A DNA stretch of 22,558 nt from Escherichia phage MirsaeidiM_Esher6. Where the stretch lies: sequence record PQ585404; one strand, given 5' to 3'. Made by a program: the position numbers and the translations under genes. This document shows, one piece after another, positions 2,851 through 22,558 of the stretch (its first letter is position 1; every line of letters begins with the position of its first letter). The notes beneath the pieces were generated by a model. The model saw only the letters and a list, made by a program, of their open reading frames with translations, was not told the origin of the DNA and ran no database searches.

Positions 2851-5800
2851 TTACTTCTGTTCAAGAGCAGAAAGTCTGGCTTCGATTCTTTCCAGTTTTC
2901 TTCTCTGATAAGCGGCTTCAGCAAAGAAAATTCCGTCAGGCCGAACACCCCACTCCTCACCCTCTTCGTGAATAACCACCTCGGTGTACACAGGTTCTTC
3001 CGTAGTAGTGACATTACCCTCCTCGTCAGTGTGTTCAATGATTTCATTGTGCGAAAATACCGTATCGGTCATCCGTGGATACTTGTCATAGCACAGAACA
3101 GCATAACGACAATTCGTACTGTTTTCATCCATCAGACCATGTGCAATGAATACATCACGAATTTGCTGAGCAATAACCCCGAAGTGAATACGAGCATCAT
3201 TGCCTTTCAGTTGAACAGCATCTAACCACTGGTACATGATGTAGTGAACGTCACCCCAGGCATCTAGGAAAGCATCATCAAAAACTACCGGCTCTGTTTT
3301 CCTCTCCCCGTTAGAAGTAACAATAGGGTTACTTCCTAGGTATGCAGTGGAGAAACGGTTGCTAGGCCCACCAAGCGCAGTGACGTTATCGTTATAAGGC
3401 TTAACATCAGCAGTCTGGAACAGGTGCTCAGCTCCGTTGTAAACTATCCGCCTTGAGTCGGTGTTATTTGCACCATAAAGCGTAATCTGTGCGCCAGAAG
3501 AAGAACTGGTACTGTCGCCTCCGCAAAATATGGTGCGCTGCCCTGCAGGGTTATCAGTCGGTATAGATTTCCCGATAAACCCATATTCACCTTCCATTAA
3601 AACTTCAGAGCGAATGTTACTACTGGTGCTGGCTCTAATGGTCACATGACCTAAACCCAAATCCCCTGTAAATTCCATTGGCGCAGGAACAGTGCGAATC
3701 CCATTCGTATCAAAAAACACGGGAACAGCTCTGTTAGGTACAGCACCATACCTGAAATCACGGGAAACATGATTGCTTGGGCCAATCTTCATTTTGTAGC
3801 AATACAAATCTGAGGGATGACCATCCGATTTGAATGGGTCCTTCGCTGAGTTATCTCCATATGTCCATGGGTTAAAATGGTCCTCTCCACCAAACATGTA
3901 GTAGATGTAATTATCCTTCACAACTACCGAACCAACACCTACACCTGAGTTAACTATTCCGCCCTGATAAATCTGGTCAGTGATGTTAACCAATTCAATA
4001 TCATCTGCATTCCAATTGTTTACATTCAAGCGTGCATAGAAGGTGCGAGGATAAGATGCCTTGTAACGATCATCTGGTGCACCTGCTTCCCATTCATTTT
4101 CTGCACGTTCTGAACCAAACATAATAAGGTCATCCCCTACTTTAGCAAAAGGTAATGTAGTATGATGAACATTATGTGGAAATCTCAGTGACTCCCAAGT
4201 CTGACCTATGTCTCTACTACGATGCAAAGAGCTACCTAGTCTATCCCCACGAGTACCACGAGTGATAAGATACAATACACCATCATAGTACTTGATGCAC
4301 GGTTCTGATGCATCTGGTTCATACTCAGCTGGTATCTGACGACGAACATAGTTAGCTGGATTGTCGAAAGCATTAGGGAAGTAGAAGAGTCCAACTTCGC
4401 GTGGGGCTACATCGCCTTGATGATAACCCATAACAAAGCCATTGTTATCAATAGTAGCAAAGCTATGCACCTCTGTTACACGAGGGATTAGACCGAGGTC
4501 TGTCTTACGCCATGGAGACTTATGGAAAGACGTACCCATGTGCCAATTCTTTCCAGCGTTATTCAAATCTGAAGTCTGCTGGTTGGGTGTAAGAACCGTG
4601 AAGTTGTCCTTATCTATTACGGTTGCAACAGTCATATCACCGGATACACCTGTTACCGCAGAATTAGAGAAGTTAACAAAATCACCCACGAATAGTCCGT
4701 GGTCTGGTACATGTATTGTTGCATATCGCTGATTTGCAGCTTTAGTGATACCACCAGTAAGATGCAGGCTACGAGACATGGGGCGATCCCACAATGCACA
4801 ATTGGTTAATTCGTTCTTGGCTAAAGTACGTGTTTCAATCATGGCAAACAGACGGTTGCGACATACACCCATGCTCATACAGTGATAGTTCACTGTAGGG
4901 TAATCTGGATGCAGATCAGTTAACCACTCTGGAGTAGACCATGTTTGACCATCATCACCAGACTTAACCCATGATACATGCAGACGACTAACACCATGAC
5001 GATCGCCACCCATGTAAGGTGCATATATCACATTATCATATACGAACGCTTTATCCTGAGGCCACGCATTGTAATAAGGGGTGTCCGTTATTTTGAATAA
5101 CTCCCCCTGAACAAATTCCTCAGAGGCATAATAAAGAGGTTGTCCGGGAATGCGCTCATAAAGGAAACGAGTGTTGATGAAGCGACTAATGTCAGGCAGG
5201 GATGTGACCTTATATGTCTTCCCATTGCCATTAATCTTTTGTCCAACCGGTATGTCGTTTAATGCGCTCGTTAACGCTGCTGTATCATCAGTGACACCAT
5301 CCCCTTTAGCACCCCAACCACGAACATCATTTTCATCAAGCCAGCGTGCTCTATGTAATTCAGGGTAGAGTATTGCCCCTTCCGGGTTTGAAATCTGACT
5401 TCTTAAAGCAGCATCACCAACACTAACCCACGCACCTAATCCAATCCCACCAGAAGTTTCAGGAGTTGAACCAGCAGGAACGTTCTTTGGAAGCGTACCA
5501 TCCCAGCGGTAATAATCACCATCCTCTTCCCATAGCAGGACCTCGCTCCATGTTGTAACGTTGTAGCCTTTCTCGAAGGAGCGACGGGTCATATAGCCAA
5601 TTAGACCAGCTTCCCTGATACTCTCAGCGATTCGGCGTGCTTCGTCCTCGCTATCCTTAGCGTTGCCAGCAGAGCTACCAGCAGCATCGGCATATTCCTT
5701 CGCTAAGTCAACCGTTTGGTCTCGACCTTCTTCTGCAATATGGATAGCCTGAAGCTCTGAATTGGTCAGGTCACTAGCTGTCAACACTGAGCCATTCCTG

Positions 5801-15864: not shown

Positions 15865-16430
15865 TAGTCCCTCCCGATGTCAGACATCATGTTGTAGCGA
15901 CCAGTGTCCATCTCATACTCCATAACCTGCTGATAGAGTTCTGCTTCCTGCTCACGAAGGTATAGCTCTGACTCCGGGCTACCGAAGAACTTAGCGTTGA
16001 ACTCACGGCTAGCTTTAGTGACGATGTAGTCCCTGAAGACCACAGGCATCTCGGAGAATGGCTTCATCTCCACAAGCTCTACCGTGATAGGGTCGGTGAA
16101 AGTGGTTGACTGAGTGGACAGGTCGTACAGGTATCCACCCATGTTGCTGTAGTAGCTGGTGGCCCCAGCGGTCATTACACGAAGGTATGACGGCAAGAAT
16201 CGAATCCTATTGTCTTGGACATCAGGTGTCAGGACAGCAGCTTCATTGATGTTAAAGTTCCAGCCTTTAGCTTGGACCTGACGATTAACACGATGCAGGA
16301 TACGTTGAGCGTTCGAGACGTCAGCGTTACCTTCGTCAAGCTGTAGGACTGCCGGTTCACCGATAGCAGCTAACATATCGTTGATGGCGTCTAAGTCATC
16401 GTTAGCATTCAGTGGAATGTATTGAGCCAT
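15864..16430 (-). CDS. gp11: Tail tubular protein A (T7 gp11-like)
   Basis: 188 aa; ...AINDMLAAIGEP...AQRILHRVNRQVQAKGWNFN...VTKASREFNAKFFGSPE... matches T7 gp11 motifs. ATG with SD AAGGAG. Confidence 0.88.
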   Translation of the reverse strand: MAQYIPLNANDDLDAINDMLAAIGEPAVLQLDEGNADVSNAQRILHRVNRQVQAKGWNFNINEAAVLTPDVQDNRIRFLPSYLRVMTAGATSYYSNMGGYLYDLSTQSTTFTDPITVELVEMKPFSEMPVVFRDYIVTKASREFNAKFFGSPESELYLREQEAELYQQVMEYEMDTGRYNMMSDIGRD

Positions 16431-16441
16431 AGGTTTACTCC

Positions 16442-16531
16442 TTAACGGTCATAGGCGCTAGACGGTGAGCTGGACAGCAGGTACGCCCAGAATAAGACGA
16501 ATAGTGCTAACCCTGTGTAAATAAGGACCAT
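16442..16531 (-). CDS. Small hydrophobic ORF (29 aa) between the T-phi-like terminator and gene 11
   Basis: Absent from the ORF track. Translation MVLIYTGLALFVLFWAYLLSSSPSSAYDR. SD AAGGAGGG about 4 nt upstream of ATG. Its TAA stop lies inside the gene 11 SD (cgTTAAGGAGtaaacctATG). Confidence 0.4.
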   Translation of the reverse strand: MVLIYTGLALFVLFWAYLLSSSPSSAYDR

Positions 16532-16544
16532 AGTCCCTCCTTAA

Positions 16545-16582
16545 GCAAAAAACCCCTCAAGCACCCGAAGGCACCCAAGGGG
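16545..16582 (-). terminator. T-phi-like transcription terminator after the capsid gene
   Basis: Minus-strand RNA CCCCUUGGGUGCC-UUCG-GGUGCUUGAGGGG followed by UUUUUU. The stem needs G-U pairs, so it forms only on the minus-sense transcript. Very similar to T7 T-phi (AACCCCTTGGGGCCTCTAAACGGGTCTTGAGGGGTTTTTTG). Confidence 0.85.
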
Positions 16583-16588
16583 TTTCAA

Positions 16589-17763
16589 TTAGTTGTTGGA
16601 CTCAGCCAGTTTAGCGGCCCTGTTCGCAGCACGAGTACGCGCAGCTTTCTGTTGAGGAGTTAGAGTCTCCTCTTCAGGTGCAGCCGCTACTGTAGCGACG
16701 TTAGGTTGGCTAAAGGTGCTTACGCCGCTGGGCTGAAAACCAGTGCGCCAGCCGCTTCAGGACGCAGACCACCATGACCCATAGCGTATTTACCAACAAT
16801 CAGGTCACCCTGAGCATCTACGTCACGGTCACGTTCCAGCGCCAAGTCACGCAGCTTCACAGTGCCTACAGCAGAACGGTGAGAGAACAGGCCCACAACG
16901 TTGTCCAGAGCAACTTTAACATCACCAGCAGCAGTAGCTGGGAAGGCGTGCTTCTGACCAGTCGCAATAGTGATACCATCGGCACCACGAGTTTCACCAG
17001 CACCACCCTGAGTCAAGTGTGGAACTTCAACAACCACGAAGCCCATTACGTTACGGATGTTACCAGTCTCTGGGTCAATCAGCGCAGCATAGTTAGCAGC
17101 GTTCGGCATCAGAGCCGCGAGGATTGCAGAGTAGTTGTCAGGCGTGGTGTAGAAGTAACGGTCGCCAGCAGGAACGTAGTTGGAGGTCAGCTTCGCACGA
17201 GCAATGGTCAATTGACCAATGATTGCTTCACCCAGTTTAGCCGGGGTGTTGAGGTCAGCTTTCTTACCAACTCCCAGTACGGACGCAGTGCCCAGACCAG
17301 CGATGTTCTCGTTGGATGCATCCGGGAGGTTACACAGGATCGCCATTTCAGCCAGCACCGCACCATCAGCAGCGATAGCCAGAGCTTCGCCCAACTGGTT
17401 GGAATACTCACCAGCCACGTCGTAGTGGTTCATCGCGTCTTCAATGTCGAAAATCATCACATCGGCAGTCAGCAGACCATCAATGGTAATCACTTTCTCG
17501 GTATGCTTGATACCTTTACGCTTATCGGACAGTCGCTCACCAGGAGCCAGATACACACCAGAGGTGCGACCCATGACCGGGAACTGAGCAGACTTACCGT
17601 TCTGAATGGTACGGACAATATGCTTGTCAGCAGTTACAGAGCGGCGAGTGAATGCGGTCAGGACTTCACCAGCAAATACCTTCAGGAACAACGCTAGAGC
17701 GTCGGAACTGGATTTGCCTTTACCTTGGTCTGTACCAATTTTCTGACCCGGAACGTTTGCCAT
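16589..17763 (-). CDS. gp10B: Minor capsid protein 10B, predicted product of a -1 ribosomal frameshift near the end of 10A
   Basis: Slippery G GTT TTC (plus-strand 16735..16741, complement) lies 4 codons before the 10A stop. The -1 frame stays open for 49 codons (GFQPSGVSTFSQPNVATVAAAPEEETLTPQQKAARTRAANRAAKLAESNN) and stops at TAA 16589..16591, immediately before the terminator hairpin. Confidence 0.6.
16720..17763 (-). CDS. gp10A: Major capsid protein 10A (T7 gp10A-like)
   Basis: 347 aa with extensive identity to T7 gp10A (e.g. LALFLKVF.GEVLTAF, KHTEKVITIDGLLTADV, AILAALMPNAANYAALIDPE, RNVMGF.VVEVPHLT.GGAG, KYAMGHGGLRPEAAG). ATG with SD. Confidence 0.95.
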   Translation of the reverse strand: MANVPGQKIGTDQGKGKSSSDALALFLKVFAGEVLTAFTRRSVTADKHIVRTIQNGKSAQFPVMGRTSGVYLAPGERLSDKRKGIKHTEKVITIDGLLTADVMIFDIEDAMNHYDVAGEYSNQLGEALAIAADGAVLAEMAILCNLPDASNENIAGLGTASVLGVGKKADLNTPAKLGEAIIGQLTIARAKLTSNYVPAGDRYFYTTPDNYSAILAALMPNAANYAALIDPETGNIRNVMGFVVVEVPHLTQGGAGETRGADGITIATGQKHAFPATAAGDVKVALDNVVGLFSHRSAVGTVKLRDLALERDRDVDAQGDLIVGKYAMGHGGLRPEAAGALVFSPAA

Positions 17764-21101: not shown

Positions 21102-21326
21102 TTACCCCATGTTGACGCCAGAGGCTCGCATAGCGCGGCTAACTGACGATTTATCTTTAGGTGCAGACTCCTTCTTGACCTTCAGGTCTTTGATACCTTT
21201 GGTCTCGTTGGTGTCAACATCCGATTCAGCCCCGATGTCAACTGACGCAACTTCCTCACTCAGAGGTGCTGGTTCAGGTGCTTGGACCGAAGGCTTCGGA
21301 GTGCTAATCTTTGGACTGAAACACAT
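21102..21326 (-). CDS. gp6.7: Small virion protein (T7 gp6.7-like)
   Basis: 74 aa beginning MCFSPKISTPK..., as T7 gp6.7 begins MCFSPKIKTPK. SD GGAGGG. Confidence 0.82.
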   Translation of the reverse strand: MCFSPKISTPKPSVQAPEPAPLSEEVASVDIGAESDVDTNETKGIKDLKVKKESAPKDKSSVSRAMRASGVNMG

Positions 21327-21340
21327 AGTCCCTCCTACAG

Positions 21341-21613
21341 TTAATCGAACTGAACGGTATCTTTCAGCTCACGACGCATAGCAATCGCAGAGTCGAGAGT
21401 GTCAGAACAATACTGGAGACCCTTGATGAACCCGGCAATGAACGCATCGCTGTAGCCTTGCTGCTTGAGGAGACTGATAGCTCCCATCTTCTCAGCATAG
21501 CTTGCGTTGAACAATACGTGCAGGAACTGGATGGCAGACTGGGAGATGTTAGGGACATCGAGTCTTTCTTCCTGTAACTGCTTAACAACGTTTTCAATAG
21601 CATTAATCGCCAT
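21341..21613 (-). CDS. gp6.5: Hypothetical protein at the T7 gene 6.5 position
   Basis: 90 aa ORF immediately downstream of a phage promoter, ATG with SD AAGAGGAG. Assigned by synteny and size. Confidence 0.65.
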   Translation of the reverse strand: MAINAIENVVKQLQEERLDVPNISQSAIQFLHVLFNASYAEKMGAISLLKQQGYSDAFIAGFIKGLQYCSDTLDSAIAMRRELKDTVQFD

Positions 21614-21674
21614 CTTGAATCTCCTCTTTAAGTTAAGACTAAAGTCTATCTTATAGTCATATCTTAGGTCCTAA

Positions 21675-21697
21675 AGTCCCTATAGTGATAGTTTAGT
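21675..21697 (-). promoter_or_regulatory. Phage RNAP promoter upstream of gene 6.5 (phi6.5-like)
   Basis: Minus strand ACTAAACTATCACTATA|GGGACT. Confidence 0.82.
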
Positions 21698-21749
21698 GTT
21701 TCACCTATGGATGACTGTTGGATTGATAGGATATGACTATCGGCTAGAC

Positions 21750-21842
21750 TCAGTGTTTAGGGCGGTTGTTCGACCCGAACCACTTGTACATGCAGTAAAG
21801 GGCAAGAAGTCCGACCCAGTAAATTACATGGATGGTGTCCAT
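21750..21842 (-). CDS. Small hydrophobic ORF (30 aa) at the T7 gene 6.3 position
   Basis: Absent from the ORF track. Translation MDTIHVIYWVGLLALYCMYKWFGSNNRPKH. SD AGGAGGT 6 nt upstream of ATG; overlaps the last 19 nt of gene 6 in another frame. Confidence 0.4.
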   Translation of the reverse strand: MDTIHVIYWVGLLALYCMYKWFGSNNRPKH

Positions 21843-22558
21843 AGGATGACCTCCTTGGACTTAGGGTCATAGTCAGATGCTCGACAAATACGAGCGACCT
21901 GAGCTTGGACCAGAAGTTCCTCCTCGGTCATGCCAGCCTTAGCAGCCAGTGTAACCATGCAGTCCCACAGCGTCATGTCTTCACGCTTCGGATACTTCTT
22001 CCACTCAGTCTTAATCTGGCCTTTGTTCTTGCCAGTCTTAAGCTCGCGGCTCTCCTGCACGAAGTAATACGGTTCGTCAAGGAATGCACGAGTGGTGTCC
22101 TCACCCATCCCCGGAATACCGCCGTAGCCATCTGTAGTGTCACCCTTGATGGTCTGCTCCATGTGCCAGTAGTCTGCCTCGGAAGTCGTATGACTCAGGA
22201 TTTCACCAGTGGTTAACCAGAAGAACTCACAGTTCGGGATGGTCTTGAAGTCCTTATCGCAGGACACCAGCACCGCATGGTCGCATCCGACAATCTGAGG
22301 TCTGGTCCCGATGATACCCATACAATCATCACCCTCAAGCGTTGGACGCAGGAAGCTGTTGAACCGTGGGTCATCCATCACTTCGGCTACGAACTTCTTG
22401 TAACCTACAGGCTTGCGAGAACCCTTACGGTTAGCCTTATAGGTAGGCAAAACGTCCTTACGCCAGTTGTTATCATCAGTAAAGCACATCACAATCTTAG
22501 CGTCTTTCCACGCCTTGCGCTTCTTAACGATTTCAGCGATGGTGTTCTCAAGGATACG
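21824..22558 (-). CDS. gp6: 5'-3' exonuclease (T7 gp6-like), N-terminal part lies beyond the window end
   Basis: Translation ...NWRKDVLPTYKANRKG...KPVGY...LEGDDCMGIIG...SCDKDFKTIPNCEFFW...TIKGDTTDGYGGIPG...KAGMTEEE... aligns with T7 gp6. The frame runs open to the window edge. Confidence 0.9.
   Translation of the reverse strand, partial: RILENTIAEIVKKRKAWKDAKIVMCFTDDNNWRKDVLPTYKANRKGSRKPVGYKKFVAEVMDDPRFNSFLRPTLEGDDCMGIIGTRPQIVGCDHAVLVSCDKDFKTIPNCEFFWLTTGEILSHTTSEADYWHMEQTIKGDTTDGYGGIPGMGEDTTRAFLDEPYYFVQESRELKTGKNKGQIKTEWKKYPKREDMTLWDCMVTLAAKAGMTEEELLVQAQVARICRASDYDPKSKEVILWTPSM

Follow-up and report, generated by a model that had tools for sequence, protein, structure and literature searches.

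A putative membrane micropeptide gene at the gene 6.3 position of Kayfunavirus phages

The DNA analysed here, referred to as the window, is a stretch of 22,558 nucleotides from Escherichia phage MirsaeidiM_Esher6 (record PQ585404). All of its genes lie on the minus strand and none on the plus strand, in the T7-like order gene 6, a small ORF, 6.5, 6.7, 7, 7.3, 8, 9, 10, the Tphi terminator, 11, 12 and onward to 17. A megablast search with window positions 21300..22558 retrieved 223 phage records, headed by Escherichia phage vB_EcoP_F at 99.6% identity, and the window phage is a Kayfunavirus (K1F-like, Studiervirinae, T7 family). Compared with its nearest relatives the window is a mosaic: the gene 6/6.5 region is 99.6% identical to vB_EcoP_F, and the Tphi/gene 11 region (window 16100..17000) is closest, at 98.2%, to other phages and not to vB_EcoP_F. 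Near-identical Kayfunavirus sequence is also found in records PV615262 (Acinetobacter phage vB_Aba_01KA) and OR786095 (Staphylococcus phage MBBL139), where the small ORF is 93–97% identical; these host labels probably reflect mislabelling or contamination of the deposited records. Features relevant to the small ORF are collected in Table 1.

Table 1. Coordinates of the small ORF at the gene 6/6.5 junction, its signals and neighbours, and the second small peptide of the window.
Feature	Window coordinates	Strand	Remarks
Gene 6 (exonuclease), 3′ part	21824..22558	minus	continues past window end; last 19 nt shared with the 6.3 ORF
Shine-Dalgarno AAGGAGG	21850..21856	minus	7 nt upstream of start; spelled by gene 6 codons Lys-Glu-Val
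Gene 6 Leu-Trp codons CTA TGG	21839..21844	minus	contain the 6.3 ATG (21842..21840)
Gene 6.3-position ORF	21750..21842	minus	30 codons plus TGA stop; encodes MDTIHVIYWVGLLALYCMYKWFGSNNRPKH
Hydrophobic aromatic-rich helix core, residues 4–22	21777..21833	minus	from hydropathy, AlphaFold and per-codon table
Tail N-R-P-K-H, residues 26–30	21753..21767	minus	from per-codon table
phi6.5 phage-RNA-polymerase promoter	21676..21698	minus	downstream of the 6.3 ORF, upstream of gene 6.5; core match 21677..21691
Gene 6.5 (DUF2717)	21341..21613	minus	next gene downstream of the 6.3 ORF
29-aa post-terminator peptide	16442..16531	minus	MVLIYTGLALFVLFWAYLLSSSPSSAYDR; on a 101-bp cassette between Tphi and gene 11

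A preliminary description of this DNA had reported a 30-codon ORF with a strong Shine-Dalgarno (SD) sequence that overlaps the end of gene 6, and all of these elements are present in the sequence and the ORF list; the stop codon of gene 6, at 21826..21824, sets the length of the overlap. The product had been called hydrophobic, and it does consist of an aromatic-rich core (KD15 = 1.86; six Trp, Tyr or Phe residues) followed by a basic tail. Assignment to the gene 6.3 position was likewise borne out, the synteny of gene 6, small ORF, phi6.5, 6.5, 6.7 and 7 being that of T7 and phiYeO3-12. The promoter core CTATCACTATAGGGA has five matches on the minus strand of the window against 0.04 expected by chance, and the homologous position in phage PE3-1 carries a phi6.5 annotation. 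Because phi6.5, a class III promoter, lies directly downstream of it, the small ORF is the last class II gene, as is gene 6.3 of T7. The gene 6.3 slot itself has been known since the T7 sequence was determined.

The peptide was recovered by tblastn from 204 phage records, with coverage of ≥80% in 200. Its match to phrog_28149 spans the whole peptide (E = 1.3e-27; residues 1–30 against profile positions 1–30 of 30), and a 29-aa variant matches the same PHROG at E = 8.5e-15. A member of the same family stands in RefSeq as YP_009789106.1, a "hypothetical protein" encoded at the homologous coordinates of vB_EcoP_F (NC_047808). The ORF is therefore already catalogued, both in RefSeq (hypothetical protein) and among the PHROGs (phrog_28149), and its presence in a known slot is what one would expect. 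It nonetheless merits consistent annotation across Kayfunavirus genomes: it is present and unannotated in the type phage K1F (NC_007456) and in PE3-1, and many other records omit it. Searches of Pfam and NCBIfam with the window peptide gave zero matches, and a PDB profile search gave a chance-level match only (E = 0.09). DltX (PF12459) was a sub-threshold match in three of 11 family members (18 bits, E = 0.0015, against a gathering score of 25 bits), and the window peptide was unmatched by the DltX HMM. DltX is part of a Gram-positive D-alanylation system that the E. coli host does not have; with scores below the gathering score, we judged the match to be compositional and rejected membership.

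The start codon of the ORF is embedded in gene 6, where it is formed by the last base of a Leu codon and the first two bases of a Trp codon. Loci anchored on the exonuclease were collected from IMG/VR, 53 at first and then 80 more. Across the first 53, the Leu codon is CTA in 28, CTG in 18, TTA in five and TTG in two, so that ATG or GTG is generated in 53/53; at other Leu positions of gene 6, CTT and CTC make up 38% and CTA and TTA together only 13%. When the wider set was reduced to the 38 lineages that retain Leu-Trp, clustered at 75% exonuclease identity, ATG-generating xTA codons accounted for 21 of 38 lineage × codon observations against a background of 12% (binomial p = 2e-10). A Fisher test of the third base of the Leu codon against an open frame downstream was not significant (p = 0.41); its count took in open frames with no valid start, which makes the test poorly posed, and it carries no weight here. 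Most Kayfunaviruses use GTG and the window uses ATG, a change that is silent in gene 6. The bias in start codons supports a selected start, and we infer that this start is translationally coupled to gene 6. In distant lineages the same embedded start leads into genes of 56–216 aa, and in enterobacterial T7-like lineages into a micropeptide.

Two further observations concern this start. Across many Autographiviridae lineages (loci L006–L058 and L087–L166) the conserved C-terminal Leu-Trp of the T7-type exonuclease doubles as the start of the next cistron. In the minimum-free-energy fold of window 21837..21860 (minus strand), the SD sequence (GUCCAAGGA) pairs with UCCU-A-UGGAC, placing SD and start in one small hairpin in which the first base of the start codon (A or G) is bulged; the region's z of −1.5 is not significant, and T7 does not conserve the pairing. 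Such a hairpin, as modelled, would fit translation that depends on ribosomes completing gene 6.

Comparison with T7 gp6.3, which the preliminary description had proposed, gave a divided answer: position and architecture agree, and sequence homology failed to appear in BLASTP, shuffling, hhalign or DUF5516 searches. The T7 protein (METVAYIGLGLCVLGVCLISWGLWDLARIIKSLHDTK, 37 aa) belongs to Pfam DUF5516 (PF17637) and phrog_11345, and its Przondovirus homologues to phrog_5008. The proteins of T7, phiYeO3-12 and Przondovirus are mutually recognisable and all DUF5516 members, with scores of 56.5 bits for T7 and 68.4 bits for the Przondovirus type against a gathering score of 25 bits. In contrast, the window peptide and 11 members of its family were unmatched by the DUF5516 HMM at E ≤ 1–10. 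Between the window peptide and T7 gp6.3 there was no BLASTP alignment, alignment against shuffled sequences gave z = 1.1 (p = 0.145), and hhalign returned a probability of 0.6%.

The two genes agree in place and build. Both begin at an embedded Leu-Trp start at the end of gene 6, behind an SD sequence made of gene 6 codons, and both are the last class II gene, directly upstream of phi6.5. Like the T7, phiYeO3-12 and Przondovirus proteins, the window peptide falls within 27–37 aa, is built around a single hydrophobic helix and carries basic residues at its C-terminal end, the N-terminus being acidic or neutral. The M-D/E-T N-terminus common to it and T7 gp6.3 is there because the overlapping gene 6 codons, L-W-T/R-P, dictate it. 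Unlike T7 gp6.3, the window peptide has no A-R-G-L-W...A-L-I-I-K motif, is shorter (30 aa), carries six aromatic residues instead of one to three, and ends in the non-helical NRPKH where the T7 protein has an amphipathic basic helix. The ORF thus looks like a DUF5516 gene in position (overlap with the 3′ end of gene 6, phi6.5 downstream) and build (about 30–37 aa, one helix), and differs from one in sequence. As judged by these alignments and profile searches, it corresponds to T7 gene 6.3 in place and architecture, but its membership of that family is not demonstrable.

A rival reading is that the peptide is a true but highly diverged homologue of T7 gp6.3, descended from one ancestral 6.3 gene and not an independent replacement. 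Position, overlap, embedded start, a length of 27–37 aa, a single helix and a C-terminal basic residue are common to all types; short transmembrane peptides lose sequence signal fast, and identity has already fallen to 33% within one exonuclease lineage (L027). Against this, every comparison listed above fell short of significance, the T7, phiYeO3-12 and Przondovirus types still recognise each other, and the shared M-D/E-T start is imposed by gene 6. A phmmer search against 1.84 billion representatives also recovered only the peptide's own family and the 29-aa variant, apart from a spurious repetitive 609-aa protein. We consider distant homology conceivable and rather less probable than its absence.

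A small hydrophobic ORF occurs at the gene 6/6.5 junction in six lineages by way of the embedded start, and in locus L056 by way of a nearby start, and the sequences are unrelated. At least seven mutually unalignable types can be told apart at the junction: DUF5516, phrog_28149 (including L027), MVAGTVAF.., L032, L097, the L125 group and L056. A tblastn search with the MVAGTVAF.. peptide gave no matches, probably an effect of low-complexity filtering. These patterns raise the tentative idea that the junction is a fixed 'translation launch pad', with SD and ATG held in the exonuclease codons K-E-V/I-x-L-W, at which the birth or exchange of unrelated single-pass membrane micropeptides has happened time and again, and that the Kayfunavirus peptide is one such independent invention. 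If this idea is true, the junction would show in compact natural form how micropeptides turn over, or arise de novo, behind a constrained start. The finding of the ORF is otherwise ordinary, and the occurrence of unrelated micropeptide families behind an exonuclease-embedded start is a modest side result. As a separate observation, in L030, L094, L095 and L096 the same embedded ATG opens an 83–96 aa Cys-rich ORF (METVKACQDC..., METKPIKPVKVCVDC...), which takes the place of the transmembrane micropeptide.

Examined in a single sequence, the ORF is not exceptional. Of the 118 ORFs of 25–40 aa that the window contains in its six frames, 6 (about 5%) are just as hydrophobic, so the single-sequence observation is within chance; the most hydrophobic other small ORF, at 4920..5024 (minus strand), was rejected as a gene, since it lies inside gene 17 in a different frame. 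The SD sequence is kept in 24 of 25 Kayfunavirus sequences, but SD and start also persist where the ORF is broken, in L028 (stop at codon 3) and L033, and, being partly hard-wired by gene 6 codons, these signals alone prove nothing. It is conservation across relatives that lifts the ORF above chance. The frame is open in all 25 distinct Kayfunavirus sequences, and the only indels, of 3 and 3+6 nt, are in frame. Over the 23 codons outside the gene 6 overlap, Nei-Gojobori dN/dS is 0.29 in the ORF frame, compared to 1.14 in one shifted frame and 1.36 in the other. The same shifted-frame values, together with the lack of genes on the plus strand, led us to reject the overlapping ORFs 21757..21870 (minus) and 21696..21872 (plus) as genes.

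Fitch parsimony on the gene 6 tree placed 23, 17 and 43 changes at codon positions 1, 2 and 3 of the ORF (chi-square p = 0.0012). Gene 6 just upstream had 1, 0 and 49, and the intergenic stretch downstream accumulated 1.24 changes per site. The peptide is under real but relaxed selection, with constraint much weaker than that on gene 6. Within it, N26-R27-P28-K29-H30 is invariant as protein in 24/24 sequences while all five codons vary synonymously (Arg is CGC, CGT, CGA or AGG), and Y8, W9, G11, L12, L13, A14, Y16 and Y19 are invariant in the same number of sequences. Rfam had no match over window 21300..22100, and neither the fold of the ORF region (z = −1.5) nor that of the phi6.5 leader (z = 0.0) was significant, leaving no RNA-based alternative reason for the conservation. 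On this comparative evidence the 6.3-position ORF is a genuine conserved coding gene. It is also a dispensable one, given that some natural genomes, L028 and L033, have lost it. Neither translation nor proteomic detection of a 6.3 product from any phage, T7 included, was found in the literature searched, and the same holds for membrane insertion of this peptide and of T7 gp6.3.

The same data bear on whether the ORF could be a non-functional by-product, its SD and ATG being hard-wired by exonuclease codons, or whether the act of translation alone might matter, for example by coupling or by protecting mRNA upstream of phi6.5. The signals that remain over truncated ORFs, the hydrophobicity matched by one random ORF in about twenty of this size, the modest constraint and the dispensability of the gene in nature are all what such an origin would predict. 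It does not predict purifying selection confined to the ORF frame with every indel in frame, nor the invariance of the tail and of eight core residues through synonymous change that includes Arg written both as CGN and as AGG, nor the fact that six or seven lineages have a hydrophobic micropeptide at the same junction. We therefore regard a by-product as improbable.

AlphaFold, run on the single sequence, predicted one helix at residues 3–25 (mean pLDDT 83.7) and a non-helical tail. The N-terminal flank (MDT) has a net charge of −1 and the C-terminal flank (YKWFGSNNRPKH) of +3. Under the well-established positive-inside rule, these charges predict a single-pass inner-membrane peptide with its N-terminus out and its C-terminus in. 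Model and charges together suggest a single-pass membrane peptide, and it is from them that we infer both insertion and topology.

The reading that we prefer, and hold to be likely, is that the ORF fills the gene 6.3 slot in Kayfunaviruses as a genuine gene, conserved yet dispensable, whose translation would be coupled to that of gene 6 and whose product would be a single-helix membrane peptide. With SD and start inside gene 6, ribosomes completing gene 6 would most likely re-initiate at the ORF or be recruited to it, and 6.3 would be read as the last cistron of class II (DNA-metabolism) transcripts. Its 30-residue product would form a single helix, aromatic-rich and hydrophobic, between an acidic N-terminus (MDT) and a short basic tail ending in NRPKH, and would most likely reside in the inner membrane with its N-terminus outside and its C-terminus inside. 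By analogy, it might there tune a membrane-linked late step such as the timing of lysis.

The analogy comes from T7, in which a missense change in gene 6.3 cut the lysis time of a lysis-impaired background to 12.3 min, down from 15 min (PMC2680503). The 6.3 changes A5S and L9P were also fixed in heat-adaptation lines (PMC8923235). T7 gp6.3 is regarded as non-essential (PMC2680503, PMC9825161), yet despite being listed as such it was absent among the deletable genes recovered in MG1655 (PMC9825161). The T7 precedent concerns a peptide with no detectable homology to that of the window. Holins and antiholins of phages, T7 gp17.5 among them, are likewise small membrane proteins, and, like changes in holins, the T7 6.3 change alters lysis timing (PMC2680503). 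The window ORF differs from them in lying outside the lysis cassette, between gene 6 and phi6.5 and away from endolysin and spanin genes, in being expressed with class II genes, and in encoding a single 30-aa helix for which Pfam and PHROGs returned no match among holin families. Our working model, in which the peptide sits in the membrane and modulates some late event there, for example when lysis occurs, is a speculative proposal, drawn from position, architecture and one non-homologous precedent, and we would put it forward as possible only. The 6.3 ORF is well conserved and easily mutated, since a start knockout can be silent in gene 6, and it joins the few uncharacterised small membrane peptides of T7-like phages that are candidates for tuning the time of lysis or another membrane-linked step.

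The second small peptide pointed out in the preliminary description, downstream of the Tphi terminator, is present as described, and was said there to have the same architecture as the 6.3 peptide and perhaps to be its paralogue. The generic build is indeed common to both: each has about 30 aa, a short N-terminus, one aromatic-rich hydrophobic helix with six Trp, Tyr or Phe residues, a polar tail and its own strong SD. The chemistry of the tail is not, that of the post-terminator peptide being Ser/Pro-rich with net charge 0 and ending in YDR, compared to the basic tail (+3) of the 6.3 peptide, which ends in NRPKH. The two also differ in distribution, with 46 phage records for the post-terminator peptide against 204, and the former is carried on an indel cassette.

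Sequence comparisons of the two were at chance level throughout. BLASTP gave no alignment at E ≤ 100. The best local alignment scored against composition-preserving shuffles was marginal for the window allele (z = 1.9, p = 0.057) and no better than shuffled sequence for the other natural allele (z = −0.06), whereas true homologues used as positive controls gave z = 4.6–12; hhalign of the two family profiles returned a probability of 6.3%, and the post-terminator peptide had no match in PHROGs, phrog_28149 included. The pairwise alignment that had been suggested as a check thus found similarity no greater than that of composition-matched random hydrophobic peptides. The architecture common to both is the look of any 30-aa transmembrane peptide. 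Descent of the pair from two copies of one small membrane-peptide gene is, as far as sequence can tell, effectively refuted and in our view very improbable, which removes a false lead.

Two diverged alleles of the post-terminator peptide exist; they are equally long, both have F-W in the helix, and both end in (S/P)-Y-D-R. vB_EcoP_F has the allele not found in the window. The repeat CTATGG, present in each of two SD-plus-ATG sites, bounds the 101-bp cassette of the peptide (window 16430..16531, minus strand; loci L059–L084). In relatives free of the insert, gene 11 begins at the start site that is used here by the post-terminator peptide, and each allele has a matching insert-free counterpart. 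This arrangement suggests precise gain or loss of the cassette between two start sites, which would explain the presence of the peptide in only 46 of about 231 records. In a further Kayfunavirus contig (locus L065), an ORF ending in ...CQRCNCAIGLLSENPEHIANAIRYLKGD lies directly upstream of gene 11, at the site that the terminator and small peptide occupy in the window; on visual inspection it resembles an insertion of the HNH-endonuclease type.
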